From Okamejei kenojei (taxonomy: Eukaryota), in contig CM069131.1 of NCBI GenBank assembly GCA_035221665.1, forward strand, positions 22,878,001-22,942,000: a stretch of 64,000 bases of DNA, in the 5' to 3' direction. How positions within the stretch are numbered: position 1 is the first letter of the stretch; each line of letters starts with the position of its first letter. Positions 1 to 60,184 of this stretch are shown here, piece after piece. A program made the translations under genes and the position numbers. Under the pieces are notes generated by a model. That model saw nothing but the letters and a program-made list of their open reading frames with translations, was not told the origin of the DNA and made no database searches.

Positions 1-95
1 TATCTCTCGTTTCCCTTTCCCCTGACTTTCAGTCTGAAGAAGTATCTCGACCCGAATCTCTGCCTGACCCGCTGAGCTACTCCAGCTTTTTGTGT
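1..95 (+). mobile_element. Penelope-like element terminal repeat fragment (hammerhead-like core, internally deleted)
   Basis: GTCTGAAGAAGTATCTCGACCCGAA...TGCCTGACCCGCTGAGCTACTCCAGC matches the repeat recurring through the window and attached to GIY-YIG remnants at 28.9 and 33.2 kb. Confidence 0.65.
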
Positions 96-774
96 AATTG
101 TATGTTTATGTAACCCTGCTTCTGATTGAGATCATGAATCATTCCTTATTCACAGCAGAGCTTTTGCCTTGAGCTTGACCTATGCTGTATAATTGGTATC
201 CTCAATATCGCTAACATTTAAAGCTGCCTTTGAACTTAAAGGAATATTGAATTGTTAATCAAACTTTTCTTGAAAGATGAGAAAAGGGCTTGAAGAACAG
301 AGCACAGATTTCATAACAATGCCCAAAAAAATATGATGGTTTCCTTGATAGAAACTACATTGATTCAGAATAAATAAATGCTAGCAAATTTCCTACTATC
401 TGCTTGATGCCTTGTTCCCTTTATGATGTTATTTCATGTCAATATATTTTGTGTTGATTGCAATCTTCCATTTGTAAATTAAATTGCTGCAATTAATGAC
501 ATGTCAAACTCCCACACACCCATTTGCTGCTTTGTAAAGAAGGCATTTGTGTTTCAGATCAATGAAATGTTCATCCCTATTCCTTAATATCCAAATAGAA
601 ACAGAGGTTACAGTATTTCAAAACTCAAACTCTGAACCTTCTGAATGATAGAAGTAAAATGCATGCAATAATCAACTCAAGTAATTAACTTTAATATTAA
701 CTATATCATCATCATTAATATCTATTGATTTTTTACCAGGGTCTGAATGTCATGTTAAGGTTCGTCTAGAGAAA

Positions 775-1005
775 TTGATATTGTTGGTAGAGTGACCTAG
801 GTTAAATCCTGACTTCTGGTGCTGTCTATGTGTGAAACTTGCACATTATTTTTGTGACTGGGTGGGTGTCTTGTTAGGTTAATAGGCAACTGGTGGGGTG
901 TGGGGAGAAAATATTGCAGAGAAAATTAATGGAGGAATGGGGTTACTCTGTGATCCAATTAGACCTGAGGTTTTGAATTGCCTCCTTCTATGATGCAGGA
1001 ATTAT
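775..1005 (+). mobile_element. Old, degraded tRNA-derived SINE
   Basis: Weak similarity to the SINE copies at 1710 and 5458 (GGTTAAATCCTGACTTCTGGTGCTGTCTATGTG; GTTAGGTTAATAGGC). Confidence 0.45.
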
Positions 1006-3607: not shown

Positions 3608-3737
3608 NNNNNNNNNNNNNNNNNNNNNNNNNNNNNNNNNNNNNNNNNNNNNNNNNNNNNNNNNNNNNNNNNNNNNNNNNNNNNNNNNNNNNNNNNNNNN
3701 NNNNNNNNNNNNNNNNNNNNNNNNNNNNNNNNNNNNN
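3608..3737. other. Assembly gap (130 N)
   Basis: Run of n. Confidence 1.
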
Positions 3738-10852: not shown

Positions 10853-11869
10853 GTAGTGTTTTTGGACCTGGTAAATGTGTTTGGCTCTGCACCAAATAGT
10901 CTTATTTGGAGTGCTTTTGAATTCCAGGATCAATAGTAAATTTAGTAACATATTTCCAAAATGTTCAAATGTGTTTGAGTCCAGTAGACTTCACAATGGC
11001 ATGGCAGAGACTAGAGATAGGCATTATGGCAGGGTGTACTATTTCCCCGTTAGGTTTTACTATACAGGATGGAGCTAGTGATTAGAGCATCACGGTGGGT
11101 CATCAGCGAGGTGGGATGGCAGGGCAGGTTGCGTATCCCTCCAATCAGGGCGTATATGGACTCTATGCCCTCGGTGACCACAACATACAAGAAGGTTATT
11201 AGAGAAATGAAATGAAAATCTTAAATGGGCTAAATTTAAGATTAAGCCTCGTAAATCATGTAGTATTTCTTTGGCTAGAGGAAAGGTTGTAGAGAAAAAG
11301 TTTTATGTAGATGAAGAAGAATTCCTGTCTGTAATGGAAAAGCCAGTTAAAAACGTGGGTAGATGGTATAACAAGAAGTTGGATGACACTGAACAGGTTC
11401 AGCAACTTAGGAAATATGTTATTGCTGAGTTAGAAAGGATAAAGAAGTTAGGGTCTCTTGACAAGTTGATGTTGTGATGTTTGTAATTTGGGCTATTCCC
11501 TAGGGTGATATGGCCATTAACGGTATATAAAGTGCCAGTATCTAAGATTGGAGAGTTCACATATTAGGAAATGGTTAGGAGTTCTACGATGTCTTAGTAA
11601 TGTGGCTTCATATGGAAAAGGTATTCTCCATTTACCATTGTCTAACCTGACAGAGGAGTTTAAGTGTGCGAAGATGAGGTTAGAGTTGCATTTATCAGGG
11701 AGCAAGGATATCCTAGTTAGTAATCTGATGCAAATATTACTGGAGGGTGGAAGTGGAAGTCAAAGTAGGCAGGACAAGCAACACAAGCAACTCTGAGGCA
11801 TACAAACATTGTTGGTAGTGCAGCAAGGGAAAGGAGGCCTAAAACTTAGCACAAGGAAACCAGAGAGGA

Positions 11870-11995
11870 GAAAGACACAAAATGCTGGAGTAACTCAGCG
11901 GGACAGGCAACATCTCTGGAGAGAAGGAATGGTTGATATTTCAGGTCGAGACACTTCTTCAGACTCAGGGAAGAGGGAGACATAGAGATATGGAA
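11870..11995 (-). mobile_element. Penelope-like terminal repeat inserted in the Hero element
   Basis: GACACAAAATGCTGGAGTAACTCAGCGGGACAGGC...TTTCAGGTCGAGACACTTCTTCAGACT. Confidence 0.75.
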
Positions 11996-12849
11996 GGTAC
12001 GGTGTGAAAACAAGCGAGAGAAGGTGTTGCAGAATTCTCATCGGAGAGAAGAGGAGAACTTCAAAGGAGGCATAACGAGGCTTGAGAAATTGGATGCAGA
12101 GCAGGTACATCATCAGAAAGAAGCAGTGAGATGTATAAGGGCAGTGTATGAATTGAGAAAGTGTAGAAAAAAGGAGGTTTGATGGAGGAGCTGTGGTGTA
12201 TGGAGGCGGATCATGTAAGTTTCCTCTGAGGGGCTATTTATGATGCACTGCCTTCAGTGCACAATCTCAAACAGTGGGTATGTGGGGATCCGGCTTATCC
12301 CCTGTGTTCAGAGGAGGCAACGTAAGGCATATTTTTGTCAGAATGTAAGACTAGTCATTCTCAGGGTTGATATACTTGGCGGCATAACCAGGTCTTGAAG
12401 TGTATACAGTAGCTGCAGCAATTAAGAGGAGGAGAACATGGGTGAATTGAGTAGGCATCAGGACTGAGAGTGTAGCTATTAATTTTGCCTGTGAGGGAGG
12501 GAAAGGTAGAGGAGGGAAGTTTGCAGACAGGCATGAGTCAGGCGAGTTACTGGGAGCCAATGATTGGGAGATGCTGGTAGATTTGGGAGGAAAGTGTTGT
12601 TCCACAGGAAATTATTAGTACTAGTTTGAGGCCTGATATGGTGTTATGGTCAGTTAGTTAGCGGATGGTGTATTTTATGGAACCGACGGTGCATTAAGAG
12701 AACGTAGTAAATGAGGCTTATGAAAGGAAAAGGCTTAGATATGTAGATTTGGCAGGCAGACGTTGAGCAGCAAGGATGTGCATCCGGTAGAGGCAGGTTG
12801 TAGAGGTTTCACCGTGCGATCGATCACGTCGCTTTGGAGAGCTAGGAAT

Positions 12850-18262: not shown

Positions 18263-18472
18263 GATAGACATACAAAGTACTGGAGTAACTCAGCGGGTCA
18301 GGCAGCACCTCTGGAGAAAGCAGATGGGTGACGTTTCGGGTCGGGACCCTTCTTTAAACTCGAAACGACACCCACCCTTTTTTCCCCAGAGATGTTGCCT
18401 GATCCTCTGAGTTACGCCAGGACTTTGTGTCAATCGTCGGTATAAACGAGCATTTGTAGTTCCTTTCTACAC
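18263..18472. mobile_element. Head-to-head palindrome of two Penelope-like terminal repeats
   Basis: Minus copy 18263-18358 directly followed by a plus copy 18359-18472. Confidence 0.75.
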
Positions 18473-19928
18473 TTCCTATTTACCTTGTTCTTTAGACTTG
18501 TCATCTTTTAGGTATATAATCTTAATTTGCTCTTTATCCACGTATCAACCTTGCCGCCTCGGACGCCTGGCCCATAAGTTCATATACATTCGCTTAATTC
18601 TCTCTCTCCAATTTCGGAATTTCGGCAGAACCGAGCTGGCTCCTACAAATACCAAACGACAGTAGAAGTGGCGAGCGCACTTGCTGAATGTATAGAGAAT
18701 GAATAAGGTATCATTTATATTGATCGGGTACGACAAAACTATTTGTCTTTGGTAAGCAGTGTAACAGAGCCAGATATTTTCATATTGCATACATTATTGC
18801 ATCAAAGCTCTCTACACAAGATTTCTCAAACATGTTCATAGTCATCTACAAATTAATCAAAATGTTCCTCACCGTTTCGGTTTGTAGAACCGATGTGCGC
18901 CTCTTTAATGCGTTCTTGTTTACTTCGGTATGACACCTGTGGCGTGTGTTTCCAGCAAACCCTATGGCACACCGAGAAAAAGCGACTTGAGAAGGTTATT
19001 TCTATCTCGAGATTCTATCAGTAGTCGCATCTCCATATTATACACTTTCCCCCAGACTTGAAACGCATGAGCCCAAGTGTATCCTCAACGTGACCAAGGA
19101 CGCCTGTTAGCACGATTTATCGTCTAAAATACTAATTCACACCCAAAGTATGTTATTGTTGTTTTCCACCATCGATCCAGAATAACGTGAAATTGCATTA
19201 CTCTTTTTCGCACGTTTTCACAACAGAAAAAAAAAAATGCCACATCCCTGCCGTCGGGTGTACCTTAGCTGGATTTATAACAGAGTCGTGTAATCTTGAT
19301 AAACATGCCCATAACTGGATTTTATTTTTAAAGTTTGTTGTCAATTGTAATGGCAGTGCACAATGCGGAGCGTTATGTGAATGTGTGTGTTGGAAGTAAC
19401 GTAACTCGATGTGTCTCGCGTGGGCAAGTGCTTGCGCGGATGGGAAGGAATGGGGGTATGCTCTGCTGTTACGACAAATCATTTGTATTTAAAACGGGTG
19501 CTTTTAAATAATCTTATCCATGTAAAAGATTCTGCCATCATCAAGAACTAAAATGAAATAAGAAACGACAGAACGTATCAATGAAAAGATCAATCTGCAT
19601 TTACATCGTGAATTTCGCGCAGTCAAAAATAGAAACACGCCAAAAGTAGTTTAGAGTGGCGGTGTCAATTGATCCTTTACATTCACCCGTGAGCTCAGTC
19701 TTTTCTAAAAGTCAACAACTTAAGAACTCTCTCAGTAGACACTGGAAGGTCAACCGTGATGTTTGTTTTCAAGTTTCTTGGGTGAAGTTTGAACGCTGAT
19801 TCACCGATGAGTGTTTTGCACTGAAGTACGAATGACACTTATCAACTAACAAATAACCCAGAGCCAAAGATAGACACGAAATTCTGCAGTAGCTCAGCGG
19901 GACAGGTGCCATCCCTGGAGAAGGAATA

Positions 19929-21540
19929 CAGTGCCCTCCATAATGTTTGGGACAAAGACACATCATTTATTTATTTGTCGCTGTACTCCACAATTTGAGA
20001 TTTGTAATAGAAAAAAAATCACAAATGCACATTGTCAGATTTTAATAAAGGCCATTTTTATACATTTTGGTTTCACCATGTAGGAATTACAGCAGTGTTT
20101 ATACATAGTCCCCCCATTTCAGGGCACCATAATGTTTGGGAAATATGGCTTCACAGGTATTTGTAATTGCTCAGATGTGTTTCATTGCCTCCCTCATGCA
20201 GATATAAGAGCTCTCGGCACCTAGTCTTTCCTACAGTCTTTCCATCACCTTTGGAAACTTTTATTGCTGTTTATCAACATGCGGACCAAAGTTGTGCCAA
20301 TGAAAGTGAAATAAGCCATTATGAGACTGAGGAACAAGAATAAAACTGTTAGAGACATCAGCCAAACCTTAGGCTTACCAAAAGAAACTCTTTGGAACAT
20401 CATTAAGAAGAAAGAGAGCACTGGTGAGCTTACTATTCGCAAAGGGACAGGCAGGCCAAGGAAGAACTCCACAGCTGATGACAGAAGAAATTCTCTATAA
20501 TAGGCAAAAATCCCCAAACACCTCTCCGACAGATCAGAAACACTCTTCGAGAGTCAGGTGTGGATTTGCCAATGACCACTGTCTGCAGAAGACTTCATGA
20601 ATAGAAATACAGAGGCTACACTGCAAGATGCAAACCACTGGTTAGCCGCAAAAATAGGATGGCCTGGTTACAGTTGGCCATGAGTACTTAAAAGAACAAC
20701 CACAGTTCTGGAAAAAGGTCATGTGGACAGATGATTAACATATCAGAGTGATGGCAAGAGCAAAGTATGGAGGAGAGAAGGAATTGCCCAGGATCCAAAT
20801 CATACCCCCTGCTCTGTGAAACACGGTGGTGGAGTGCTATGGCCTGGGCATGTATGGTACTGGCTATCTTATCTTCATTGATGATACAACTGCTGATGGT
20901 AGTAGCATAATGAATTCTGAAGTGTATGGACACATCCTATCTGCTCAAGTTCAAACAAATGCCTCAAAACATTGGCTGGCAGATCATTCTACAGCAAGAC
21001 AATGGTCCCAGACATACTGCTCAAGCAACAAAGTTTTTCAAGGCTAAAAAATGATCGATTCTTGAGTGGCCGAGTCAATCATCGATCTGAACCCAATTGA
21101 GCATGGTTTTTATATGCTGAAGAGAAAACTGAAGGGGACTAGCCCCCAAAACAGGCAAAAGCTAAAGATGGCTGCAATAGAGGCCTGGCAGAGCATCACC
21201 AGAGAAGACATCCAGCAACTGGTGATGTCCATGAATCACAGACTTCAAGCAGTCATTGTATGTAAAGAATATGCAACAAAATACAAAACATGTCTACTTT
21301 CATTTACATGACATTGCTGTGTCCCAAACATTATGGTGCCCTGAAATGGGGGGATTATGTATAAACACTGCTGTAATTTCTACAAGGTGAAACCAAAATG
21401 TATTAAAATGGCCTTTATTAAAATCTGACAATGTGCACTTTAACCACGTGATTTTTTTCTATTACAAAACTCAAATTGTGGAGTACAGAGGCAAATAAAT
21501 CAATGATGGGTCTTTGTCCCAAACATTATGGAGGGCAGTG
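19929..21540 (+). mobile_element. Tc1/mariner (IR/DR type, DDE) transposon, full length, transposase decayed
   Basis: TA|CAGTGCCCTCCATAATGTTTGGGAC...GTCCCAAACATTATGGAGGGCAGTG|TA; about 210 bp TIRs with inner repeat CCATAATGTTTGGGA; motifs GRPRK, WTD, QQDN, DLNPIEH with stops and frameshifts; splits a Penelope repeat (19868-19928 / 21541-21572). Confidence 0.92.
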
Positions 21541-22829
21541 TAGGTGACGTTGCGGGTCGGGAACCTTCTTCAACCTAGAGCCACCTTTATTTAGGTACAG
21601 TAAGTTAGAATCCTTCGCTTAATCCACTCTTGTATGAAAATAAATAACGGAATTAATGCATATCCGCCTGACAGAACATAAAATAAAATGGCCTGTTTAC
21701 TATTAATCCATAAGAATTTAACTAGAAATAGAGAAGTGGTGCCAAAGGCATATTTTGAGCTTTCTAACTCAACGCAGTGTGATATTCTGTTCTGCAAGAA
21801 TATCAGCAGTGTGTTCTGGACTCCAGAGTGGTCGGTTAACAACACAAATGCAACATCTTTCCTAAGAACTTATGCATTGCATACTGAAATGAGTGCGAAC
21901 AATCCCAGAGAAGAATAAATCAGTTCTGTTTAAATTGTATAATAGGTTAAACAAATTGAACAATCCTTGTTAATTAGAACGCAATTTCGGGGTCTAATTA
22001 TATTTCTGATGATGTAGCAACATGACTATTCAGTTCGTATTAATAATCTTCTGCTGCGGCTGCATGTTACATTGTATGGTTCTTTATCAGGTACTAAATC
22101 TGGTGAAGGGATACCCATTTCAAATTCCCATAAATATTAGACCGTGTAGACTAGCCTTCACGAGTGACACATGTACAATTTAATGATACAAGATATTAGC
22201 CCTCTGCTTCTCAATTTTTTCACTATTATGAAAACTAATAAATTTGTCAACGAGAATTACGCATACAAATCAGATGAGGCATAGCAGATTACATATTGCA
22301 GTCCCGTGCCTCTCGAGTTTAAATGAAATTTCAATCTAATAATTCCTTTCTGGCCTGGTCATAATTTGCTTAGAGATGCTGCTTGACTTCTTTTCGGGCG
22401 CAATGAAAGCCCTATTCGCGCGATAATTAAATGAGAGTCAGGCTTTTAAGTTTGATTTATTTTCTTCCACCGTGCTATGAGAAGAAAGGTGGAGCAAGTA
22501 GTGTAATATAATTTCTTGATTTCTTCCGGAAACTGCAAAGAGAAATGTTATAAAATATAATGAAAACAGTCAGCGATTTAATAAGCAAAACGGCAACAAG
22601 ATGCAATATTAGGTATACCTCACATCACTTACAGGACAGGACTAGTGGAGTTGAAAATCTAAATATTACACACATTTTAATAAATGTGTAAAACAATTTC
22701 CTTATTTGAAATTCACGGAGAATTTCCCTTGCTGCCATCAATTGAAAAATGAGCATTATTGACACAGTTTTTCCGACCAGCGGCATATAAAAGCAGAACA
22801 ATATTATGCTGCTTGCCAAAATAAACTCT

Positions 22830-24134: not shown

Positions 24135-24333
24135 AGCAATATATTCGGCGGGCTGGATGAAAGTTTGGTGGCCCGCGCCGAAGCTCTGGCGGCTGTGGAC
24201 ATTGTACCGCAGAGCACCAAGAGCCACCCGTTCAAGCCGGACGCCACGTACCACACCATGAACAGCATCCCGTGCACCTCCACCTCCTCCTCTGGCCCCA
24301 TCTCCCACCCTTCCGCGCTGGGCTCGCACCCGC

Positions 24334-27055: not shown

Positions 27056-28884
27056 AGGTAATCTATTGACCTCATTGTTGATCTTTATTATTAAATGACC
27101 CTACGCTAAATGTTTACAATAAATCCTATATGTGGTTGCATTCGCTATAATGCGGTTTTAATCTAAACATAAACATATTTTATAACCTGTAAAAAAGCGG
27201 TTAAAAGATCGAACTGAAACTATTGGTTGGACTAAAAACAACGGTTCCTACAATTTTACATAAATCGAATGATCGCGTCTTATAGACTACCGATCAGTGC
27301 TGTTTTGCGGCGTGGTGAAGGAAACATGATTCTGTTGCTAATGCTTTAGCACTTAATGCCTGTATTGCCAGTAACGGGTAAAAGGTACCTCGGAGAGATT
27401 GCAAATATTCTATTAGACTCCAATCAGAGAGTCTGTGGAGACTAGGATTTGTCCCAGGAGCTCCAGGCTGCCAGATGTCAACGCTCGGTGCTCTCACACT
27501 GTCAGCCAGGAGTCTGTATCAGGGTATACATATAACCTGTTTTCCGGTCCATCTATTGCACGCCGATCGTCTAATAAAACTAGTGAAAACAAACAAAAAT
27601 AAAACTAGTGTATGGATGTTTATGCGATTTGAATCGTTTAAATGTGGCAATTTGTCAGAGCCGTATCCGGAGACTAGGGAATCAATGCCACCGAGAGTCG
27701 GCATCCAAACGCTTTGAGTTTGGCTTAACTAAAAAAAGCAACGTAATTCTCCCAAATCAAACAACCCATCACATTTTCAGTGTGCAATCTGTTATATTAT
27801 AGTTTTAAATACTGTGTTCAATTTACACTTATCCGATGTGTAGATTAAATTTCGCAGAAATAAGGCATTTTATATATTGTTGGCAATTCATCGTAGCTGT
27901 TTATGGGAATATAGCTTCTATTAATAATATAATTCTTCATGTTGGATGGTTTCAAATAATACCGAATGATAATGGGATTGGTGCGTTCAGTTCGGAATTA
28001 GTTTATTTACCCTTTATTCCCCTGTAGACTAATTACACATTGAACTACACCAAAGCACTGAATTCCCCATAGCAAGACTGTTGGTACCTGTAAATCTATT
28101 ATCTTCATAGAATTAGGAGACACAAATGAGTCTCCATTATTAAAGACTAAGCAGCTTTCTTCAAGTGATATGTTTAAAAATATATATTTTGGATGGAGCG
28201 TAAAGTAGTTATTTGAGCGACAGTAGAATTGACCAGAGGCTTAACGGATAGTGAACGAGTGCAGGGAGGCGGTCCCCAAAGTCAATATTATTTCAATTGG
28301 AATGTGCCTTAGAAGATTCTTAGAATGGATGTTCCTCATGCCAAAAGATGATGCTGTCGCATATTCCTTCCTATTTTGTTAAGTAAACATCACCAGACCC
28401 TTAACACGGGAAGCAATGCATATTTACCAGATTGTTTTATCAGTTTCTCCAATCAGAGTATTTACATGTCAGCCAAGGTTTTACTGCTCAGTGACCCATA
28501 TTACTTGAACTTGATCATCGAGTCTTTAACGGATCTGGTGAATATATAAGTGTAAACAGTCATATATTATTTCACAATCTCTCGATAATGTTCTATTTCA
28601 TTTCGATTACATTAATAAGGAGCAATGCTATGCATTTCGGGTCACGTTCCTCTTGTTAGGAGTTATACTCACTCGATTGTGTTGACTGATGGGAGAAGAG
28701 TTGTAAAAATGAACAAATGATGATCACATTTTATAAAGTCGACATAACGTCCTTTAAAATATGCCTAATTTGATTAAACGAAATGAAGAATTGTCTTTAA
28801 ATTCAACACTGTAGCATGCTTCTCCAATATACAAGCACAGAAGGGAGGGGGGGGGGGGAGGAGTATATGTATTCATCCTGAAAA

Positions 28885-29058
28885 TACACACAAAATGCTA
28901 TAGTAACTCAGCGGGACAGGCAGCATCTTGGAGAGAAGGAACGGGTGATGTTTCGGGTTGAGACCGTTCTTCAGCCTTTCTGTCCTAGGCCTCCTCCAAT
29001 GCCAGAGTGAGGCCAAACGCAAATTGGAGGAACAGCACCTCATATTTCGCTTGGGTTC
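28885..29058. mobile_element. Penelope-like element remnant: inverted terminal repeat fused to GIY-YIG C-terminus
   Basis: Minus repeat 28885-28975 joined to plus-strand LSVLGLLQCQSEAKRKLEEQHLIFRLG. Confidence 0.8.
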
Positions 29059-30861
29059 CTTTTTGTTTGCATTACAAAGCAGTTTCGGATGTGACTTTGT
29101 TAAATATTCTCATATGCCCTGTCTGCTGATAAAAGACACGACACAAAACTACCCATTAGCCATTCTGGAAGAACTTTTCGATTATTTCATCTAAAGTTGT
29201 AAAACTACTACTTTCCCTGTTTGACTGAAGCCCACGAATGATTATCAGCTAAATGTAATGAATCATACTCACAATCCATACAAGCCAAACAAGTGACAGC
29301 TGTTGGCAGTACAGAGGCTCCGTATCTTGGTAATTACATTAGAGGAACGCTGCAAAGTTCCTGCTTAAAGAACACAACCCGAAACTATGTAATTCCCGTT
29401 ATCCTGCTAATATTCATTATAGAGAGTTGCTTATCTTCAATTATCATGGAATAATCAATCTTCCACAAGGAATACACTTGTGCAACAATGATTAATACCT
29501 ACTGCTAATAATTCTGAATACAGCTGTCTAAACAACGCATCAATACACTGAATAGGTGACTATCTTTAGAACACTTGGAAGAGCCATGAAACTTACCCAC
29601 CATTTTTTTTTAACCTTATGGTAGAAGGTAGAAATTATTGAAAACGTCTTCTTTGGGTGATCCAAGTGTAGTTGTAGATGACCTCCTAACATTGTCTTTA
29701 ACGTGCTCATTTCATACTCGACCTTGTGAGGCTAGGTGTAATAAACGCAAAATTACTACAATTATGTGGTTGTGCGACTTCTGAAATCTGATAAAAGAGT
29801 TACAATTGGAAACTTAGTTGCGTCAGCAACTATTTTTAGATGGTATTGCCACTATTTTTGTTTCCCATTGGCTATTTTTATTTTTCATATTCGACATTAT
29901 ATTATCGTGCCTATTTTTGTTGGGGAGGGGGAGGAGTAAGTCGGACTTCCATTTAAAAGACAGGCTTGTTAACACTGATTGAGTTTGTAAATACTTAAAA
30001 CTTAGAAATAATTCTTAATAATTATTGATCTAAGGCGTCTGAAATTACCCGTCTGAATGCAGCGATAACGATCGAAATGCCAATAAAATATTACAAATTA
30101 ATCAGATAAACACAACTACCACCATGAGGATGGGGGCTGGAGGTGGAGATGTCGTTTATGTCAAATTAACCACTGAACAGGCAGCAGGAGAAGAATCTAA
30201 CATTTACCTCGCCCTCTAAATGAGTCATTCACTAAAAGGCCATTACGGGAATTAATAAATTACACAGCGAAAAGCGAAATCCAGATAATTACAACGAATA
30301 AGTAAGTAATCATTAGTTATCTGAGCTAATTACTCTGGGTCACAGAGAGTTGGAATTTGAAATCCTCACCGGGAATTAAAATTAACTTTGCATAGTGCGC
30401 GTCTCTGCTTGACATCCTCAATCTAGTCACATGTCAGTTCCCGAGTGAGAAACCTCTCGGTTAATTTAAGAGGGGAGGAGGAATCTGAATGAGAGTACTG
30501 CGAACTGGGATTGCTTCATGTTTTCATTTCTAACGCTTGAATAGATATTTTTATCAACGTATGTCTACGTTTGTTTATCATTTTAATGAAATATCAAGAT
30601 TACAATTGCAAATTTCCATTTCAACAGTTCACTTCTTTATATTAAATAAGACATTCTGAAGACGTTAAATTAAGAACGTATAACATCATGTTATTACGTT
30701 GTATGCTGAATTCCCGGTGTTTCCAATATCACATATAATATGTTTTTCTTGATTTATACTATTCACGCAAGAAAATATAACGTCTATTCCTTGTGACAAT
30801 TTGTGTGATCTCGTCAATCCTTAATTAGGGAAGGCTTTGCTTCTTCAAGAACGGAGGATTA

Positions 30862-35438: not shown

Positions 35439-37577
35439 CAGTGCTCTCCACAATGGCAGTGTATAAACATTATAGACCTAACGTTTATTTATTTGCCTCT
35501 GTACTCCACAATTTGAGATTTGTGATAGAAAAAAGTCACATGTGGGTAAAATGCACATTGTCAGATTTTATTAAAAGCCATTTTTATACATTTTGATTTC
35601 ACCATATAGAAATTACAGCTGTATTTATACATTGTCCCCCCCATTTCAGGGCACCACAATGTTTGGGACACATGGCTTCACAGGTGTTTGTAACTGCTAA
35701 GGTGCGTAATAATTGCCTCCTTAATGCAGGTATAAGCTCTCAGCACCTAGTCTTTCCTCCAGTCTTTCCATCACCTTTGGAAACTTTTATTGCTGTTTAT
35801 CAACATGAGGACCAAAGTTGTGCCAATGAAAGTCAAGAAGCCATTATGAAACTGAGAAATAAGAATAAAACTGTTAAGGGCCTGTCCCACCAGCGTGCGA
35901 CTGCATGTGGCGAGCGCGACCAAACGTGGTGGCCTGAGGCGTACGGCCTCGCGGGGCCAGTCCCATTTCCAACTGAGCCGTATGGAGCGGGTCCCGACAT
36001 CATACTCACCAACCAGCTGGGCAGGAGGTGGGCCGAGTGGACATCGCACTGCGTCTGGCGGTGACGCCATCATGCGACGGCACGCCGGACGGTGATGCCA
36101 TCGCGCAACGCCATGCGCTAGGCGTACGGTGTCCAGACTCTGTGTACAGCGTCATGACGCTGCGTACGACATCGCGACGGTGCACACGTCCTCGATGTGG
36201 CTGCGGGCCGACAGGCCGTTGCCGCGCGGGATTTTTGGACAGTGTCAGTTTTTCGGAGCCCCGCACGATGTCGGGACCAGCCCTGCACAACTCCATATGG
36301 CTCCGGCGATCGAAGTGGGACCGGCCCCGCGAGGCCGTACGGCTCAAGCGACCACTTTAGGTCGCGCTCGCCGCATGCAGTCGCATGTTGGTGGGACAGG
36401 TCCTTTACAGACATCAGCCAAACTTTAGGCTTACCAAAATCAACTGTTTGGAACATCATTAAGAAGAAAGAGAGCACTGGTGAGCTTACTAATCGCAAAG
36501 TGATTGGCAGGCCAAGGAAGACCTCCGCAGCTGATGACAGAGCATTCTCTCTATGATAAAGAAAAATCCCCAAACACCTGTCCGACAGATCAGAAGCACT
36601 CTCCAGGTCAGGTGTGGATTTGCCAATGACCACTGTCTGCAGAAGACTTCATGAACAGAAATACAGAGGCGACACAGCAAGATGCAAACCACTGGCTAGC
36701 CGCAAAAATAGGATGGCCAGGTTACAGTTTGCCAAGAAGTACTTAAAAGAGCAACCACAGTTCTGAAAAAAGGTCATGTGGACAGATGAGATGAAGATTA
36801 ACTTGTATCAGAGTGATGGCAAGAGAAAATTATTGAGGAGAGAAGGAACTGCCCAAGATCCAAAGCATACCACCTCATCTGTGAAACACGGTGGTGGGGG
36901 TGTTATGGCCTGGGCATGTATGGCTGCTGAAGGTACTGGCTCACTTATCTTCATTGATGATACAACTGCTGATGGTAGTAGCATAATGAATTCTGAAGTG
37001 TAGAGATGCATCCTATCTGCTCAACTTCAAATAAATGCATCAAAACTCATTGGCTGGCGGTTCATTCTACAGCAAGACAATGATCCCAAACATACTGCTA
37101 AAGCAACAAAGGAGTTTTTCAAAGCTAAAAAATTGTCAATTCTTGAGTGGCCAAGTCAATCACCTGATCTGGTCCCAATTGAGCATGTCTTATATATTCT
37201 GAAGAGAAAACTGAAGGGGACTAGCCCCCAAAACTAGCATAAGCTAATATGGCTGCAATACAGGCCTAGCAGAGCATCACCAGAGAAGACACTCAGCTAC
37301 TGGTGATGTCCATGAATCACAGACTTCAAGCAGTCATTGCATGCAAAAGATATGCAACAAATACTAAACATGACTACTTTCATTTATGTGACATTACTGT
37401 GTCCCAAACATTATGGTACCCTGAAAAGAGGGGCCTATGTATAAACACTGCTGTAATTTCTACATGGTGGCACCAAATTGCATAGAAATTGCCTTTATTG
37501 AAATCTGACAATGTGCACTTTAACCACATGTGATTTTTTAATGTGATTACAAATCTCAAATTGTGGAGTACAGAGGC
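35439..37577 (+). mobile_element. Second Tc1 copy (same family as 19929-21540), interrupted by a MITE, right end truncated
   Basis: TA|CAGTGCTCTCCACAATG start; MRTKVVPMKVK from 35805; WTDEMKINLY, VKHGGGGVMAWAC, QQDNDPKHT, SPDLVPIEH; in-frame stops. Confidence 0.92.
35877..36404. mobile_element. PIF/Harbinger-type MITE (528 bp) inserted in the Tc1 ORF
   Basis: TTA|AGGGCCTGTCCCACCAGC...GTTGGTGGGACAGGTCCT|TTA; the empty site CTGTTAGAGAC is visible in Tc1 copy 1; long internal inverted arms. Confidence 0.9.
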
Positions 37578-39200: not shown

Positions 39201-40109
39201 ATTAACTCAATAAACAGTTACGCACACAAAAAAAACAGCTTTCATATATTAAACCTTCCTCTACGGAAAAAATGATGCAGAGATAACGTGAACGCCGCAA
39301 GAGATAAAATACTCTAATTAAAGATGAAACTGCAACCAAACAATCTGCAATGGAAAGCGAGATAGTTAGTTATAATAGTTAGTTATAATAGTTAGTTATA
39401 AGCAGGTTTTCCTTCAATTAAATTGGGTACCCCTTCTTGATATAATTCCACGCGTAGTCAATAACCTAACGGCGCAATCTGACTCCTAATGGCTAATTTC
39501 TTGAAAGGACACCTATAGGTCATTACAGCAGCAAACACTGGAAGGTAGCAAATATGAGAACCTTTATTGTTATGGAAATCTCCGGGCCCTTGTTTTTACG
39601 GGTTCCTTTAGGCTATAGTAATAAACAGAGTAATTAGAATGCTAAAGACAGATGTAAATAAAAGAAAGTAGGCTGCGCTGATGGATGAGTCGCTGGGTCA
39701 GGCCCTCATCAAACAGCCCAGTTGGTAGCAAATGATCCTCTCCATGCCAATGGCCTTGGGCAAAAACAAAGGACAGAGAAAGGGAGGGGAGAGAGATACT
39801 GGGGAGCGCTTTTACGCAATAATTACATCAAAATGTCATCGCATCTGAATAGCAGGCAGAAGCGCAACCAGACACGGTCACATGTGGGCCGTGCAGTGTT
39901 ATTTATTATTTTGACGGAGTATTGACCTCCAGTAACGCACCGCACATTTCCCTTTTTCACTCTTCTCCGTTCTCTAGTTGGTTCAGAAAATATGTCTATG
40001 AAGGCATACACCGCCAGTATTGACATATTGACATATTTTACAAGAAAATCGACATTCGTAATCTAAAACAAAATAAAAGACCAAAGTGCAGGAGGAATTT
40101 AGTGGGGCA

Positions 40110-41272
40110 GACAGCGTCTGACCCGAAACACCGAGTGTTCCTTTCCCTCCGCACATGCTGGCTGCTCCGCTCAGTTTCTCTAGCACGTAAAAAAAGGCAC
40201 AAAGTGCTGGAATAACTAGGCGGGCCATGCAGCAGCTCTGGGGAACAAGGACATGTGACTCTTCGGTCCGGGACCCTTCCTGAGACGTATTGTGGTGGGA
40301 TGGGGAGAGAAAGTTGGAAGAGAAGAGGGGCAGCACTTCGCTTTGTATTTGCTGAAGATTCCAGCACTACAAGACACTTGATCTACCTGGTCAATCAGAC
40401 TTCTTCGTGTTGATGAACAAAACTCCAACCGTTTATTTATTTCCCTCTAAAACGTTGACGCGTATCCTGGAAGTTAATTCTTACAGGTGTTCCAAGTAGA
40501 TGTTTTTCAGATAAAAGTGAACGTATCATTCTTGCACTAATCCTTTATATGTTGGCAGCTAAAAGGAAAGCACAGAGGAGATGGGTGATACCAGGACATC
40601 GTGACCCTGCCAACAACCATTCCCGGTATTGGTCAAGAGCTAAGACAATTTATTTTAAAATATAACGCAAACATTCCATGCAGCAACTGCGATAACAAAT
40701 CGATGCTTTTTGGATATATACTTTTAAATCAGTCACCAATATAAATTAAAGAATTTGCTGGGATCCCTAACCTGTTTTTTAAGTCTACTTCGGTATAACA
40801 GTCTGAAGAAGGGTCGGAAACGTCGCCCATTCCTTCTCCCCAGAGATGCTGCCGGTCCCGCTGAGTTAATTCAGCATTGTGAGTCCACCTTCAGTTTAAA
40901 CCAGCATCTGCAGTTCCTTCCTACTCTATATAACAGCAGTTGACACTAAGAGCACTTTTTAAAAGGATCAAATATCCTATCATGACGTGCTACGAAATTC
41001 TTCAAGATGATACTTTTTGTTCACACACAAAGTGCTGTAGGCATGGTGTTCATTTTAAATCTGCATGTGTGTGACCCTTACATTTACTGATCTTGTAACT
41101 GTCCTCTCAGAAACGTGCAACAGCTAGAAGAACTAGTACGGGTTTTGAAGAAAGGTCTCGACCCGAAACGTCACCCATTCCTTCTCTCCAGAGATGCTGC
41201 CTGTCCCGCTGAGTTACTCCAGCTTTTTGTGTCTGTCTTCGGTTTAAACCAGCATCTGCAGTTCTTTCTTAC
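40110..41272. mobile_element. Cluster of four Penelope-like terminal repeats (about 40110+, 40195-, 40798+, 41143+)
   Basis: For example 41143 TTGAAGAAAGGTCTCGACCCGAAACGTCACCCATTCC...CCAGCATCTGCAGTTC; interspersed with unique DNA. Confidence 0.75.
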
Positions 41273-43614
41273 ACTTAGTACGGGTTTTATCTTGGTTTCT
41301 TGGAAAAGTTGACACAGTCTTAAACTTGGTAAAACATACTCAGATACCTTTTCAAACATACCTTTTAAAAAAAGTATTTCTTGATCCTACACACACCATT
41401 ATTGCACGAATTCTAAATTCTCATTTCATCTCCATTAAAGTGACAGGGAATGTGTAATCTAACGATGCTTTTAAATTCTGGAAGTTCAATCGTGCCTGTA
41501 ACCCTTGATTTGGCATAACGAGAGCTGCAAGTTCCTCGAATCAGCGAGCAAACTGCGTAAAAAATTCAGTAGATCTCAAATACGATCGTGTGATGGCAGC
41601 AAATTGACGGATAACAAGATGTAAGGGATTATAAGGTACACGGGCACGATCCCTGCACTTTTTCAAATCATGAGGTTTTCAAGATAATTTAAATACCTTC
41701 TAAGTTCTTATCTTATCTGTCTTCGTATCTGTCGCTCTCTAGGATATGAACTATTAGCAGTTAAATATAACAGGAGAGATAATAAGAGCGCTGTCCGCAT
41801 TTCAAATTCACACCCACACTCATCTATGGGGAGGAACTGGTGCAATTGGTAATAGTTGAAACAATGAATGGAATATTGGGATAAACTTTTAAACTTTGCC
41901 TGCGTCAGAAACGCGTCGCCTCTTGTGTACTGCCTAGGTGAGTGAGGTCCCCGTCGCATGATTTACCGGATTGTATGCAAAATAAAGCATTTCACAGCAC
42001 CTGTGTACATGTGACAATAGAGTATCATCGTAAGCATCACATCATCATAACTTGAGCATTTCAGTGGATCAGTCTACTGAAAGAATTGGCAGTTCGACCG
42101 GCTGTTAGCAGCTGATATTAAAATGCCTGACTACAATTATAACTTCCCCACCGCTACCTCCAGCTATCAATAACCATATTTATTAAAAAAAAATAAGGAC
42201 GATGCGTTTGAACATCACGGTTTGTCGTTGTTTTCAATTGACAATTTCGCGATGCATTAAATTCCTCCGCGTTTTACAGCAACTAATCGCATATTAAATT
42301 GAAACAAATTTATTCTATCAATTCTAAAACGCTCGCTATAAAATAATTTAATGAGAAGAAATTGGTGACAACGTCTCCTAATTTTATATACATTTAAAAC
42401 ATCTTAATTTCCTGCAATATGCCGCGTTTGACAGGGTCAAAGGATTGTAGCCTGAAGCCGGCGGCCGGTCAATACTTTTTAAACAGAACGACCCTTCCCC
42501 CTCCGAGCACAGAGGAGAATACGTGACCTTGTAGGTATGAAACATCTTGAAATTGATGCGAAGAAACCCAGCAGTAAATGCAGTGAAATACTTTGGTGCT
42601 TTTATCTGCAGCTGAACCCTGGTCACAATTCTTCATACAATGAGTTTTGAAAATAAAATGACCTCAGCTGTTTGGTTCGACAATCTTTACCTAGGCTTGG
42701 CGTAAACGGTGAAAGAACTACACTTGCAAAAGCCAACGATGCAAGTCGAAAAGAGTTCACGGTGAAAGGATGAAAAAAATGCGGAGTACCATTAATCAAA
42801 CTTAAAATTCCCTTTGCTGAACTTTATACATCTTTACACTTGATCACCCCGCATGAAGACACAACCCATGGAGACACTGTCCGAGTGGTAGAAGGCAGGT
42901 CTTGTAGATATGGAGGTCAAGACAATGACGGAACTAGCTGAAAGAAAAATAAGGACGAATTTCGGAAGCAGAGGGAAGACATGAAAGGAAAAGAAAGATC
43001 GGGAAATGAAAAGGGTGAAATAATTGGCGGTATAAACCAGCTTCTGGAATGTCAAAAGCAGGAAAAATAGAGGTTGAAAGTTAAATAAAAGTTAAACGAT
43101 AATCAGAAACAACGTTGAAGTTACTGTGAAATTCAGACGAGAAAGTGTTTTTTGTTCTTTCCGCAGTTATCACTATGTCATATAACCGAGACCAAACAAA
43201 CATTAAACAGGCATAATATCACACCCGAAAGGTTTAAAACGCGTGGCATACATGGCCTGGCAACCTAGTAAACTGAAAACTTATTGTTTATTTATTTAAG
43301 GCGGAGATTGATAGATTCATGACCAGTCTGGGTGTCAAGGGTTATGGGCAGGAGAATGGGGTTGAGAGGGAAAGATAGATTGAATGGCAGAGTAGACTTG
43401 ATGGGCCGAATAGACCAATTCTGCTCCTATAACTTATGGATATGTAATTATGACATGATTTATTTGTTGTGTTGCGTTAATGTGCATGTAAAAGCTACAG
43501 AAAATAAGAATTTCTCCCCTATGCAGTTGGCAATTAAACACTATTGAATCATAACTTTTGAACGGCCTAAGGATATAAATGGGAGTCTTCACTTTCAAAC
43601 CACTGCCTTACAAC

Positions 43615-43842: not shown

Positions 43843-44494
43843 ATACTGCCTTACACCTTCCTCTTGAAGGCTGGTGCTTTTGCTTTTCCTTGTAGGACTG
43901 GTTCCTGCACTGATCCAGTGGACGGCAGAAGATGTCGGATCATGGTATGGTCGTTTTTTTCACTTTAAATCGGTTTTGCCTTGTACTTCCCGTAATTATT
44001 GGCCGTTTTCCAACATTATATTCTCAATATATATTTATGCAGATGGTTTTTGTTTGGCCTCGAGCGGCTGGGTTAATGACATATGTGTAGTGGTCTCCAG
44101 GGTATAAATGTCTCCACCTGTCCGCAGGTCCACAGAAAATGGAGCCCCCAAACCAATTGAACGCATATGTTTTGACACAGGGAACAGCAGATGCTGGAAT
44201 CTTGAACAAACCACAACGTGGCGGAGACTATACTCTACTGGACTGTTTGTAAGAATACGGATTTCACTTTGTTAGCACTTCGTATATGTGTCAATAAGAG
44301 CATCATTGAACTCAGCGGGCCAGGCAGCATCTCTGGAGAGAACATGGACAGGCGGCGTTTAGGGCCAGATACCGCCTGACCCGCTGAGTTGCTCCTGCGC
44401 TTGCTTTTTGAACGCATATGGTTGTTCCTCTACATTGCCGTGTGACATAACAGTAATGACTAGACCGACGTCTAGTTGCACACGCTCTATTCCC

Positions 44495-48015: not shown

Positions 48016-48819
48016 ATGAGATCTAATAGATTTCAACTGGGAGAATCAGGAGATAAGGTAATAATACAGTAAGGTAAATTTGAGCAAAGAATCAGCCATT
48101 ACCTTGATTGAATGATACAACTTTGTTTTAAGAGACATGTGGCATGTTCCTGCTCTATTTCCTGTTATTGATTATGTTTCATGCTGGAGCAAGAAGTTCA
48201 TATGAGGTTCTTGAACCACTTGTGGTGTGATAGCATAATGATTCATTGACTATCAGCAAAAGTCCTGGATCATTAATCCAGAGACATGATTTTGAATCTT
48301 ACCATGACAGCTGGGAAATTAAATACATCTGCACTTAAATAGCTTCAATTAGCGAAAATGTGAGACTACTGGATTTATTAATGTATTTCAGGGAATGATG
48401 TGTTCTGTACTTACCTGGTCTAGCCTCTATGTGACTCCAAGCCACACAATATTTCCACTACTTGGAAAATCTCAAAGAAGGGAACAGTAGTCATAATAAG
48501 CGGTGGGCCATTTAAAACCGAAGTGAATAGATATTTATTTTTGCAGATTGCGATGAATCCCTGTAATTCTCAAGGCCAGAAATTGTGGAAGCCAGATCAT
48601 TATAACTATTTAAAGTAGAGACAGATACATTAAAAAAAAAACAGAGCTGGCATAAAAGAGGAGTTGAGGCTTGGGGTAGATCAGCTGTACAAAGCTATGT
48701 TCAGGTTGCACTTGAAGTATTGTGTACAGTTTAGGTCACCACACTACAGGAAGGCAGTAACATAAAGAGTGCAGTCGGATGTTGTATGGAATGGTGAGAT
48801 TTAATTATAAGGGAAAAAA

Positions 48820-49185
48820 AGACACAATGTACTGGAGCAACTCAGCAGGTCTAGTAGCATCTCTGAAGGTAAGGAATAGGTGATGTTTCCGGACGGGACC
48901 CTTCTTCAGACTGATTGCGGTGAGAGGGGGAAAGAGTTAGACGTGAAGTTGGGGGTGGACAAAGCCTGGCGAGTGACAGGTGGATACAGGTGAGGGTTTT
49001 TTTGATTGACAGATGATTGGATAAAGGCCAGAGATGTAATGAAGAAAAGACACTCTCTACCAGGTTTCTAACCCCGAACAAATTCTGTCTGAAGAAGTGT
49101 CTAGATCTGAAACATCATCTAATCATGTTCTCCAGAGATGCTGCCTCATCCTCTGAGTTACTCCAGCACTTTCTGTCTTTTCTTC
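48820..49185. mobile_element. Inverted pair of Penelope-like terminal repeats within CR1 debris
   Basis: Minus copy 48820-49050 (with purine-rich extension) and plus copy 49085-49185. Confidence 0.7.
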
Positions 49186-49589
49186 TTGTAAGCTGCCATA
49201 TGCGGTTTCTTATGATACTTATAATGAAAGCTTGGTTAAAGCTGGCTTTATTCTCACTGGAATGTAGGAGCCTAGGGTGTGATTTTATAGAGGTTTGTGA
49301 AATTCTGAGGGATGTAGTATAGATAAAAGTCTTTTGTTTGCAGATGGCGGAGTGTGAAACTAGAGGGCATAAGTTTAAGTTGAGAAGTAGGAAATGTAAA
49401 GGAGATCTGAGGAGTACATTTTTCACACTGGGTGGTGAATATTTGGAATGAGCTGCCAGAGGAGGTGGTGGAGGCAGATACAGTTACAGCACTTTCCTTT
49501 TTTGCCAGCATCCTGTGAACTGCTTTGTTATCGCTGGCTATGTTAAATGTGCTATATATACACAAATTTGTTAACTGATTTATCCCTTT

Positions 49590-50739: not shown

Positions 50740-51890
50740 ATGATGGACTAAAGTATGTTCAGTCCAATGCAAGGAGTATTATAGAGAAAGCAGATGAACT
50801 TGGATCAACTGTAATATTGTGGCCTTTGCGGAAATGTGGTTGCTAAAAGGTCATTAGTGGCAGCTCAATGTCCGGGGTTTCAATGTTTCAGATGTGATCA
50901 CGAGGGACGCAAATGAGATGGCAGAGTTGCACTATGAAGCGGCACTCAGTGGGGACATACTAGAGGGTTCAATCACTGAGGTAAAATGAGTAGAGCTTAA
51001 AAATAAGAAAGGTGCAAGCACTCTAATGGCATTGTACCATAGACTCCTCAACAGCAAGCAGGAGATAGAGGAACAGATATGTAGACAGATTACAGAAAGA
51101 TGCCAAAGGAACAAGGTCATATTAATGGGTGACTAACTTCCACAATATTGACTAGGACTTGCTTAGTCCGAGGACCCGACCATGGGAGGGCAACAGAGGA
51201 GGACGACTGGATTTTTGGAGCCTTCCCTCACAGTGGGAATTTGATCCCGCTGTGTGGGGATGTCTGTGTTAAAAAAAAAACTATTGTGTCCTGTGCTCTT
51301 TATTATTTATTTGTATGGCTGTATGGCGACCACACATTTCACTGTACCAATTAGTACATGTGACAAATAAATGTATCTTGTATCTTGTATCTTAGTACTA
51401 AAAGCTTAGATGGGGCAGAATTTGTGGAATGTATCCAAAGGGATTTTTTGAAACAGTGTGTGGATAGTCCAACCTGAGAAAGGAACATGCTGGACCTTGT
51501 GTTGTGAAATGAGTCCGGCCAGCTGACTGGTGTGACATTGGAAAGCATTTTGGGGATAGTGATCACAACATAAGCTTTCTCCCAGTCTGAAGAAGGGTTC
51601 CTAGCTGAAACATCACCTATTCCTTTTCTTCAGAGATGCTGCCTGACCTGATGAGGTACTCCAGCATTTTGTCTATCTTCCATAATTGTTAAGATTGTTT
51701 TGAATAGAGAGAAGGCTCGACCTTGAGAAAGGTACTAAATTGGAGCAGGGCAAACTACAGCATCATTGGACAGGTGATTGGGAGAGTACACTGGGAGCAC
51801 TAGTTTTGAATAAGTCCACATCTGACATGTTGGTGTTGTTTAAAGGGTATTTGATTGAAGTTCAGAACCAGCATGTTCCAGATGCATTTT
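50740..51890 (+). mobile_element. CR1 LINE apurinic-endonuclease region remnant with nested insertions
   Basis: NARSIIEKADEL, AEMWL, ILMGD, MLDLVL, HFGDSDH motifs; degraded. Confidence 0.75.
51168..51390 (+). mobile_element. Short retroposon with (GTATCTT)n tail and 6-bp TSD
   Basis: CTTAGT|CCGAGGACCC...ATGTGACAAATAAATGTATCTTGTATCTTGTAT|CTTAGT. Confidence 0.7.
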
Positions 51891-52365: not shown

Positions 52366-52670
52366 TGCCAATCGCCTCCCTCGCCCTCCCCCATCAGAAC
52401 TCACCAAGGTATTCCCTGGCTTTTCCTACCCCCACATCTCTTTTGCATTTTCAAGAAAGATACTGATCTGAAAGGTCATCTGTCCATTCCCCTCACAGAT
52501 GCTGCCTGACCCACTGCATTCCTTTAACACTTTGTGTTTTCGCTAAACATGGTATTGGGATATTGAATGGTTTGGTTACTCTGCTATTTTGTGGTTATTA
52601 CGATGTTTGTTTATGAAATTGACAGAGTTCCACCTCTTTATAGACGAGAAGCCATTTGAATATCATTGAT

Positions 52671-56811: not shown

Positions 56812-58680
56812 AAGAGTCAAGAATCAAGAGTGTATAATTGTCAGATCTACCGAAACGGAACTATGAAACTCTTACTGGCAACACCATAACAGGTTTGTAA
56901 ATACAGTACTTAATAGATAATGCAATAAACAAACAAAAAAAGTTCCATATGTAAAAACTCAATATAATGCAAAACAAAACAAAGTCAGAAGTCCTTAGTG
57001 TAACCAAGGCAGTTCATAGTTTAGAGTTTAGTTGGAGTTTGTAGTGTTTAATAGCCCGATGATTGTTGGGAAGAAACTGTTCCTGAACCCAGAGGTCACA
57101 TTTTTCAGATTCCTTTTTCCAGATATCTTCTTCCCGATGGCAGGAGTAATAAGAGAGCGTGGCCAGGGTGGTGTGAGACCTTAATGATGCTGGCTTCATT
57201 TTTGAGATGCCTTCTATCGATCCCATCAATGATGGGAAGGTCAGTGTCTGTGATGGACCGGGGAGTGTTCACTCCTTTGTTCCTGGGTGTTCAAGTTGCT
57301 GAATGCAACCAGTCAATGGTCTTAATGCAACCAGTCAATGGTCTCTACTATACACCTGTAGAAGTTCAAGAGAGTATTCATTGATATACAGAATCTCCTA
57401 ATTCTTCTCAGGAAGTTGTGGTATTGATGGGCTTTCTTTATGATTGCATCGACATGCTGGGACCAGAAATATGCAAGCCCAGGAACTTGAAATTGTTCAT
57501 TCACTCCACCACCCATACATTCATGAAGAAAGGTTTGTGGTTCTTCGGCGTTCCTCTTCTAAAGTCACCAATCAACTCCTTGGTCTTACTGTCATTGAGA
57601 GCAAGGTTGTTGTTCTGGTAACGTTTGCATATTTAAAGATGGAGTTGCAACTGTGGCCGGCTACAAAGTCATGGGTATAGAGTGAGTAGATCAGGGGACT
57701 GAGCACACAGCTCTGAGGTGCCCCTGTGCTGATGGTTATCGAGGAGGAAGAGTGCTATCTGCACGGAGTTTGTATGTTCTCCTCGTGACTGTGTGAGTTT
57801 TCTCCAAGATCTTCAGTTTCCTCCCACACTCCAAAGATGTAAAGGTTTGTAGGTTAATTGGTTTGGTATAAATGTAAATTGCCGCTCGTGTGTGTAGGCT
57901 AGTGTTAATGTGCAGGGATCACTGGTCGGTGCGGACTTGGTGGGTCGCACGGCCTTTCTCCACGCTGTATCTCTAAATTAAACTAAACTGCTGAGAAAGT
58001 CGAGGATCCTGTTGCAAGGGGATGTGTTTTTATTGTTCAAGTGGTCCAGTGCAGAGTGGCGAGCCAGTGTGATTGCATCCTCCATTGATCTATTGTGGCA
58101 GTAGGCGAACTATAGTAGGTCCAGGTTCTTGCTGAAGTAAACATAGAAACATAGAAAATAGGTGCAGGAGGAGGCTATTCGGCCCTTCGAGCCAGCACCG
58201 CCATTCAATATGATCATGGCTGATCATCCAGAATCAGTACCCTGTTCCCCATATCCCATGATTCCGTTAGCCCTAAGAGCTAAGAACTATATCCAACTCT
58301 AGTTAGGAGTTCTAACTCCAGTACTCTATCTAATTGTAGTAGGAGTTGATAGCGTCATAACCAACCACTCAAAGCACTTCACCACGGACGTTAGTGCCAC
58401 TGGTTGGTCGTCATTGAGGCATGTCACCTTACTTTTCTTGGGCAATGGTATTATTGATGCCTTTTTAAAGCAGGAGGGAACCTAAATCCTCAGCAATGAG
58501 AGGTTGAAGATGTCCGCAAAAACTCCTGCCAGCTCGTTTTGAGAACATGACCAAGTACACTTTTAGTTCTAGATGCTTTCCAAGGATTCACCCTCCTGAA
58601 TGATCTTCTGATATCGACCTCACTGACTGAGGTTGCGAGAACATCAGGGACTAGGGAGGCCTGAGAAGCCACATCAGTGT
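56812..58680 (-). mobile_element. Rex1/Babar-like LINE remnant interrupted by a SINE and a CR1 end
   Basis: IIKKAHQYHNFLRRIRRF..TLLNFYRCIVE and VSEVDIRRSFRRVNPWKA motifs; (TCAAGA)n tail at 56810-56830. Confidence 0.75.
57755..57990 (+). mobile_element. 5'-truncated HE1-like SINE
   Basis: GGAGTTTGTATGTTCTCC..TTTCCTCCCACACTCCAAAGA..CTGTATCTCTAAATTAAAACTAAAC. Confidence 0.8.
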
Positions 58681-60184
58681 TCTTGGTCTACAGCAGGGTC
58701 CCGACCCGAAACGTCACCTATCCATGTCCTCCAGACATGCTGCCGATCCCACTGAGCTATTCGAACACTGTATTTTTTTTTGTAAAACTAGAATGTGCAG
58801 TTCCATGTTTCTACATTTCTTTATTGAAATATGCTGTTGCAATAGCTTGTTGCACATTCCCTCTGCTTGAATGTGTGCAACGAACGATTGCTGTTCAACA
58901 TCCTTCCATGTAATTCTGACACTTAAATAAGATCTCTGATTTCCAGTTGATAATTCCCTCACAATTCTGTGGGATGTGTTCCTTAAAATCTTGAAATTAC
59001 ACTGTGTGCAGGAGGGACATAGAGGGCTGAAGGTTGTGAACAATACTGTCGCAGTACCCAGTGCACTTCCTCAGCCCCATGTCAGTGCAGTTTTGTTGCC
59101 TCTCAGCACAAAGAACAGATCAACTTGTTAAAACAATACTGGTTGCTTCACCAGGGATCTGGGCTGAGTAATCACATTTGTTGGTGCAAAGAATGTGAGA
59201 ATCAATTACATTAGTTAGGAACTCCTATAAATAGTGACTAATGTGTATTTTAGACTGTTCTCCTGAATCGCTTGACTCAAAATGAGGTTTGATGGCCAAC
59301 CCAAAAAGGGCTTTACAGTCTTGGTACCTTTAACCCATCAATGTTCCTCCTTATCCTCTGCATGCGAACTATTGGTTATTTATGTTAATTGTATTGCCTC
59401 AGATGTTAATTCTGGGACATATGATAATAAAACAATCTTGACTCTCATGACTTGTAGCCCAAAGTTTTATAACATTTCACTGAAGCAAAGTAGGTTTTCT
59501 GTGAGAATATAAAATGTGTAGAGTAATGGAGGGTTTAAGCAATGTAGTGTTCGCAATAAATAATGTTCACCTGCATATATTCACTTAATGAAACCAGTTT
59601 CATACAATAAACTGTAACTCTGTGTGAAGAAGGGCAATTAAAAAAATTGCATCAAATTATTTTTTTGTGACATGATGGTAAGGATTTAAAGATAGCATTA
59701 GATCCTCACCATATCTGTGGAGTGTGTTAATGTCTCAGGTTAATCTTGAGGTGTGGGTTTGAATCCCACAATGTCAGCTTTGGAATCTGAATAGAAATGA
59801 TTAAATAAGACTATCTTTTAGAAATGGTGATCTTGAAACTGGTGATTGTCTTTAAAAATGCAACTTGTTACTGATGTCATGAATGAAAGAAAATCTGCTG
59901 TCCTTTGCCAATCTGGCTTGGATGTACTTCAGACTCATCAATCTCATTGATTCTTATCTGTCTTCAGAAATGGACATGGAACAAATCAAGGATGGACAGT
60001 TAGTGCTGAACTTGTCACCAATGTCCACATTGTGAATAAATAAATTAAAATGTTCTGGATTATGTAAATATAACCCCTAATATATTTGTGTGTGTGTTTT
60101 AATGGTATACTGCACATAATAATGTGTAGATATTGAGTTTAAACTGGGTATTCGCCCGATGAAAATTGGCACGGACATCTTACC

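Follow-up and report, generated by a model that had tools for sequence, protein, structure and literature searches.

A very abundant Penelope-like pseudo-LTR with a minimal hammerhead motif in Okamejei kenojei

Known relatives of the family

Minimal hammerheads of metazoan Penelope-like elements (PLEs) have, as the survey in PMC4209133 describes them, CUGANGA and GAAA boxes, an extra nucleotide between A9 and G10.1, a G10.1-C11.1 pair, palindromic positions 15.2-16.2 and no loop 3, and they occur mainly singly and dispersed, in association with truncated PLEs. The EN+ PLEs of Neptune and Nematis type combine a reverse transcriptase (RT), a cysteine linker and, at the C terminus, a GIY-YIG endonuclease, and their copies are described with a 30-40 bp tail at one end, head-to-head inversion, target-site duplications (TSDs) near 8-16 bp, partial tandems and an inverted 5' copy (PMC8557442, PMC3846280); the linker, CX2-5CxxC between RT and endonuclease, is given as a feature of the Neptune/Nematis clades (PMC8557442). 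For one element, Poseidon PAc of the green anole (Frangieh et al. 2024, PMC11167929), two internal RT starts and the nicking and extension of both strands have been reported in vitro, and its ribozyme is said there to need protein and to be dispensable for insertion. Non-LTR retrozymes (bioRxiv 10.64898/2026.07.22.740005) also contain a type I hammerhead and are pLTR-related; they are described as tandem complete-ribozyme units, with a mean of 363 bp in the one chondrichthyan sampled in which they occur. An expansion of PLEs in the whale shark is already in print (10.1101/443036); no paper on the PLE hammerheads of cartilaginous fish was found in our literature search, and the supplements of existing surveys may list such motifs.

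The family analysed here is of a previously known kind, a PLE pseudo-LTR (pLTR) with a minimal hammerhead, and it is very abundant in Okamejei kenojei. It was encountered in a stretch of 64,000 nucleotides (assembly GCA_035221665.1, contig CM069131.1, positions 22,878,001 to 22,942,000), hereafter called the window. Its majority sequence carries each feature that PMC4209133 lists for PLE minimal hammerheads, and its copies likewise are mainly single and dispersed. Helix II here has 4 bp and a tetraloop (5 bp if intermolecular), against 7-8 bp in Schistosoma, and helix I has 2 bp against 4-5 bp, while the D. virilis motif in the same survey also has a helix I of 2 bp. The domain order, the one-sided tail, the head-to-head inversions and the length of the TSDs are those of Neptune/Nematis elements as published, whereas the short copies, or stubs, differ from what is described for these elements in sharing a fixed 5' base and in dominating the family by about 35:1. 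Like Poseidon PAc, the family has two internal end sites one tail apart, and it is a further likeness that the account of that element reports neither RNAs nor copies ending at the ribozyme cut site; in PAc, however, the ribozyme contains the ORF start and the RT sites are part of the ORF, whereas here both end sites precede the ATG. Unlike the non-LTR retrozymes, the copies are monomers of 95-135 bp or inverted pairs. The value of the family is mechanistic, for it bears on how PLEs insert and on the role of their ribozyme; the motif itself is unsurprising.

Identity and abundance of the repeat

A first-pass annotation of the window, made from the sequence by eye, had listed about 20 copies of the repeat. 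An iterated nhmmer profile, built from one window copy, matches at every position on that list and finds 22 pieces (E 1e-47 to 2e-4; Table 1), which represent 21 copies because the pieces at 19863-19928 and 21529-21579 are a single copy split by a Tc1 insertion. The consensus motif drawn by eye agrees with the majority sequence of the copies. The same annotation had described two copies as joined to GIY-YIG endonuclease C-termini. Both C-terminal fragments are real, matching the shark PLE protein P0001 in tblastn searches (64%, E 3e-7; 45%, E 3e-5), but only the one at 33171-33860 is colinear with its repeat; the junction at 28976 is inverted: a plus-strand endonuclease fragment meets a minus-strand repeat. 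A 31-aa window fragment gave no pairwise BLAST match to a distant PLE protein, Pfam searches with single frames gave no match for the window endonuclease fragments, and a spacer of about 480 nt within 33171-33860 has no good match among the fetched loci. The ORF-start fragment, UTR and pLTR that follow one another near 12 kb suggest an internally deleted element.

Table 1. Repeat copies and associated coding fragments in the window
Position	Strand	Feature
14..95	+	pLTR copy with UTR stub and internal deletion, without tail
11869..11977	-	pLTR copy without tail; UTR and PLE ORF-start fragment (~12013-12074) directly upstream on its strand
18264..18472	.	Head-to-head pair: untailed minus arm (starts at -4 of C3), tailed plus arm
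19863..21579	-	Single pLTR copy interrupted by Tc1/mariner insertion of ~1.6 kb (19927-21542)
28877..28978	-	pLTR copy, inverted relative to adjoining endonuclease fragment
28976..29059	+	GIY-YIG endonuclease C-terminal fragment, 28 aa
33171..33860	+	End of a 5'-truncated element, comprising endonuclease C-terminus, pyrimidine-rich spacer, decayed hammerhead and pLTR
40082..40313	.	Three old pLTR pieces, clustered, in alternating orientation
40794..40924	+	Solo pLTR, tailed, target duplication of 8 bp
41142..41274	+	Solo pLTR, tailed, target duplication of 13 bp; top-scoring window copy, without C3
43617..43841	.	Head-to-head pair, one arm tailed, target duplication of 11 bp
44309..44400	.	Short head-to-head pair
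48814..48941	-	pLTR copy with UTR stub, without tail
49080..49207	+	pLTR copy, tailed
51582..51682	+	pLTR copy without tail
52417..52539	+	Old pLTR copy with UTR stub
58683..58809	+	pLTR copy, tailed

The Tc1/mariner element in the split copy is decayed, has terminal inverted repeats of 91 nt and was inserted at a TA; pieces related to it lie near 35500-37540. A POU class IV gene of Brn-3 type, with Pou and homeodomain matches, occupies 23655-25082 (+), and no repeat copy is found around it between 21579 and 28877. Positions 3608-3737 of the window are a run of 130 N.

The identity of the repeat follows from its place in longer copies. Among 20 loci selected on the endonuclease C-terminus, most run from the stop codon through a pyrimidine-rich UTR of about 115 nt into the motif; and in 7 of 25 loci picked by the 5' part of the ORF, pLTR and tail continue into the ORF start, so that the repeat is the element's own pLTR. 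The order within the element is endonuclease stop, UTR, hammerhead motif, first end site, second end site and ATG, the last lying about 35 nt past the tail, or second end site, in most loci that reach the ORF. Upstream, the PLE RT motifs, a C-x4-C-x2-C linker and a GIY-YIG domain are recognisable with all frames broken (L061, L064, L057), and no intact element ORF was found among the loci examined. A 215-aa RT piece has 158 homologous proteins, the top four being shark proteins (62-66%), which points to a cartilaginous fish as host, and the matches carry the precomputed domains PF00078, PF26215, PF28514 and PF01541, while Pfam on single frames responds weakly (RVT_1, E 0.19). The repeat is the pLTR, with an optional tail of 35-40 bp, of an EN+ Penelope-like element, and the linker points to the Neptune or Nematis type. 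The Penelope origin assumed at first pass is thus upheld by the position of the motif after the endonuclease stop, that of the pLTR before the ORF start, and the PLE character of the RT homologs. Within a random sample of loci (L011-L145), several unrelated 3' UTR families share one pLTR, and copies of the youngest pLTR subfamily diverge by about 5%. The ATG at the ORF start (L286-L298) lies within AAG/GTATGT, which can also be read as a strong splice donor.

Abundance was estimated from 98 stretches of 10 kb (980 kb) taken at round coordinates of the 2.76-Gb genome. They contain 465 profile matches, covering 4.9% of the bases, of which 382 are pLTR copies, and the reversed-sequence control of the same sample contains none; extrapolated, this gives some 1.07 million copies genome-wide. 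Exact whole-genome counts are 33,470 for the 31-nt motif and 60,556 for the intact core with stem II, with zero in either control, and the sample is representative of both, holding 12 of the former for an expectation of 11.9 and 24 of the latter for one of 21.5. The massive amplification proposed earlier is therefore borne out by the sampled copies and the exact matches alike. These exact intact motifs are 7-15 times the highest counts in PMC4209133 (about 4,000 minimal hammerheads in the coelacanth and about 9,000 in Xenopus), although that survey used another search method. The ratio of stubs to copies reaching the endonuclease rests on 382 of the former against 11 contiguous examples of the latter in the 980-kb sample.

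The hammerhead motif

The reading of the repeat as a minimal type I hammerhead pattern is supported by the majority sequence, by pair counts and by the exact matches to core and stem II. Core boxes, the extra base after A9, helix II and a palindromic minimal helix III are all present, and a minimal-hammerhead descriptor has 17 matches in 580 kb against none in 10 shuffles. None of the window copies passes this descriptor, as the remark at first pass that no copy there has a perfect core would lead one to expect; six retain both boxes, but their stem III letters fail to pair. The absence of intact cores from the window is unremarkable, since a stretch of 64 kb should on average hold only 1.4 intact motifs. 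Rfam hammerhead models gave no match in the window at E<=10.

Helix I is limited to 2 bp in most copies, with an A-C mismatch at the third position in 158 of 225, and all core letters are kept in 55 of the 243 copies that span the core. Non-CpG core positions are conserved at 0.92, compared with 0.91 at comparable downstream sites, and CpG positions, of which two pairs lie inside the core, at only 0.69-0.82. No double or compensatory changes were seen above the level of CpG decay, in a set of neutrally decaying copies from one genome that has little power for such a test. In four intact copies the ribozyme fold is unfavoured, stem II having a predicted probability of 0-0.24, and the best predicted dimer pairs stem II between molecules. 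A fossil of self-cleavage, in the form of a peak of 5' ends at the cut site, is absent, since only two of the 382 copies start there. By these measures (the 2-bp helix I, core conservation, covariation and cut-site starts), genomic signs of ribozyme activity are absent. This picture fits the anole element, whose ribozyme is reported to depend on protein and to be dispensable for insertion (PMC11167929).

Copy ends and the probable origin of the short copies

Counted from C3, the 3' ends of the 382 copies fall into two clusters one tail apart, at +83 to +100 (177 copies) and +123 to +129 (126 copies); the pile-up at +129 coincides with the end of the model, and flanks beginning at +127 to +130 support the site. 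At the other end, 160 copies begin within -8 to +3, while 117 start inside or after the core, so the 5' boundary is not absolute. The favoured boundary is an A, at -3, that precedes the CUGANGA box by three bases. It was scored where the first box is good and 150 nt of sequence lie upstream, which holds for 184 copies, the other 198 being left out. Of the 184, 47 bear UTR, 75 are flanked by unique sequence and 62 by an inverted partner. The 137 without UTR keep A(-3) in 89 cases and C(-4) in 49 (background frequencies 0.285 for A and 0.214 for C), and the 47 with UTR keep each in 42. Of nine copies that run on into the ORF, only L255, L286 and L296 start at the boundary, while five retain some UTR and L293 starts at +20. 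In a run from another organism, contigs have loose ends at identical bases, although these are ends of contigs and not RNA 5' ends. At two loci (oriented, L255:750-900 and L268:714-920) the pLTR tail is joined to a nearly identical ORF-internal point about 20 nt before a pyrimidine-rich CAG, which may mark a family with one deletion in common, or else a hotspot of processing.

Target duplications, where found, are of 9-16 bp, with one of 8 bp among the window copies (Table 1). They are exact in 13 of the 75 unique-flank copies and in one of the 62 with an inverted partner, for which the range searched falls short of the outer flank. Of 20 G-class loci that have a TSD, 10 show the duplication abutting AGT or overlapping it by 0-3 nt. 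In a test for a cap-derived G, G at -4 occurs at 1.1-1.5 times expectation, depending on the background, and a single untemplated letter occurs at 2 of the 20 G loci that have a TSD, compared with 1 of 7 A loci, the A count being inflated by a composite present in 6 of 20 A loci. A head-to-head partner accompanies 145 of the 382 copies and a tandem upstream partner 14, and in 39 of 50 head-to-head pairs the tail is on one arm only (p=4e-5).

The short copies are probably abortive insertion products, formed when RT primes internally and runs off the nearby 5' end of the RNA. The two 3' end sites would then be two internal RT start sites, as in the anole element, and A(-3) would be the start of transcription, to which RT would proceed from either site. 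Priming of both nicked strands would give two cDNAs joined head to head, one tailed and one tailless; longer copies would stem from read-through transcripts on which RT primes in the downstream pLTR; and the hammerhead would be copied uncut and then decay neutrally, fastest at the two CpGs within the core. The TCAGT context of A(-3) resembles an initiator, and the hammerhead core may resemble MTE/DPE promoter motifs. Penelope is reported to have an internal promoter (PMC2377424). It is nearly as likely as not that promoter and ribozyme are one stretch of 31 nt, with transcription from the first base of helix I, RT priming sites about 90 and 130 nt from the cap, and twin priming that mass-produces solo and palindromic pLTRs. 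If so, a million stubs, making up about 5% of the genome and holding more than 60,000 intact cores, would amount to a record of PLE insertion in vivo, and pLTR stubs could seed promoters genome-wide. Start and end points that are precise to the base over about a million events fit the internal, two-strand priming seen in vitro, and the copies indicate that uncut RNA is the usual template.

An unlikely but serious alternative leaves the pLTR identity as it is and attributes the boundary not to the RNA start but to stalling or fold-back self-priming of RT, at the TCAG-N-CTGA palindrome or the edge of the folded ribozyme. It would account for the many head-to-head partners and for 10 perfect palindromic junctions in the 980 kb, and palindromes at the inverted pLTR junctions of rotifer PLEs have been read as self-priming (PMC3846280). 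Against this, the 75 unique-flank copies among the 137 without UTR stop at the identical base with no inverted partner; fold-back predicts that -4 and -5 are kept, yet most copies lose both; and stalling at a ribozyme edge agrees poorly with a fold that predictions disfavour.

It is distinctly improbable that the short copies form a non-autonomous, SINE- or retrozyme-like family with masters of its own and RNA processed by the ribozyme, a fuller form of the SINE-like derivative that the first-pass annotation proposed. Most copies are indeed short with fixed ends, solo copies could retain an internal promoter, and some tandem partners and contigs with head-to-tail joints exist. A separate short lineage was nevertheless not found, since short and UTR-bearing copies intermix within subfamilies. 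Among 169 copies the nearest neighbour shares the short or UTR-bearing label in 83, compared with 107+/-13 in shuffles; all larger subfamilies mix short and long copies, and at a finer cut all six clusters of at least four copies contain both. At a coarser cut three small clusters (5, 5 and 4 copies) lack a UTR-bearing member, so that minor short-only lineages may exist. This reading is further opposed by the two cut-site starts, by the lack of core selection or covariation, and by the arrangement of the copies: tandem complete-ribozyme units are what defines a retrozyme, but the 14 tandem partners compare with 145 inverted ones, and no long tandem unit arrays occur within the 980-kb sample.

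Least probable of all is a 3' splice site at the boundary, with short copies derived from spliced or splicing-intermediate RNA. In its favour, the intron of D. virilis Penelope is reported to end at helix I (PMC4209133), and a pyrimidine tract followed by YCAGT closes the UTR in 34 of the 47 UTR-bearing copies, in different UTR families. Against it, no shared upstream exon is seen, the flanks being unique and the TSDs abutting AGT; searches of the 980 kb with two junction words found no join of endonuclease end to motif; and contig joints that cross the UTR are rare and lack GT..AG ends.

Seven loci (L246-L252) share an element of about 650 bp with terminal inverted repeats of about 15 bp, which carries a head-to-head pLTR insertion with a TSD of 13 bp; a pLTR segment of about 57 nt in this insertion is tandemly expanded to a variable extent. 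This composite was considered as a self-amplifying derivative and rejected, since it resides inside the element bounded by inverted repeats and has spread as its passenger.
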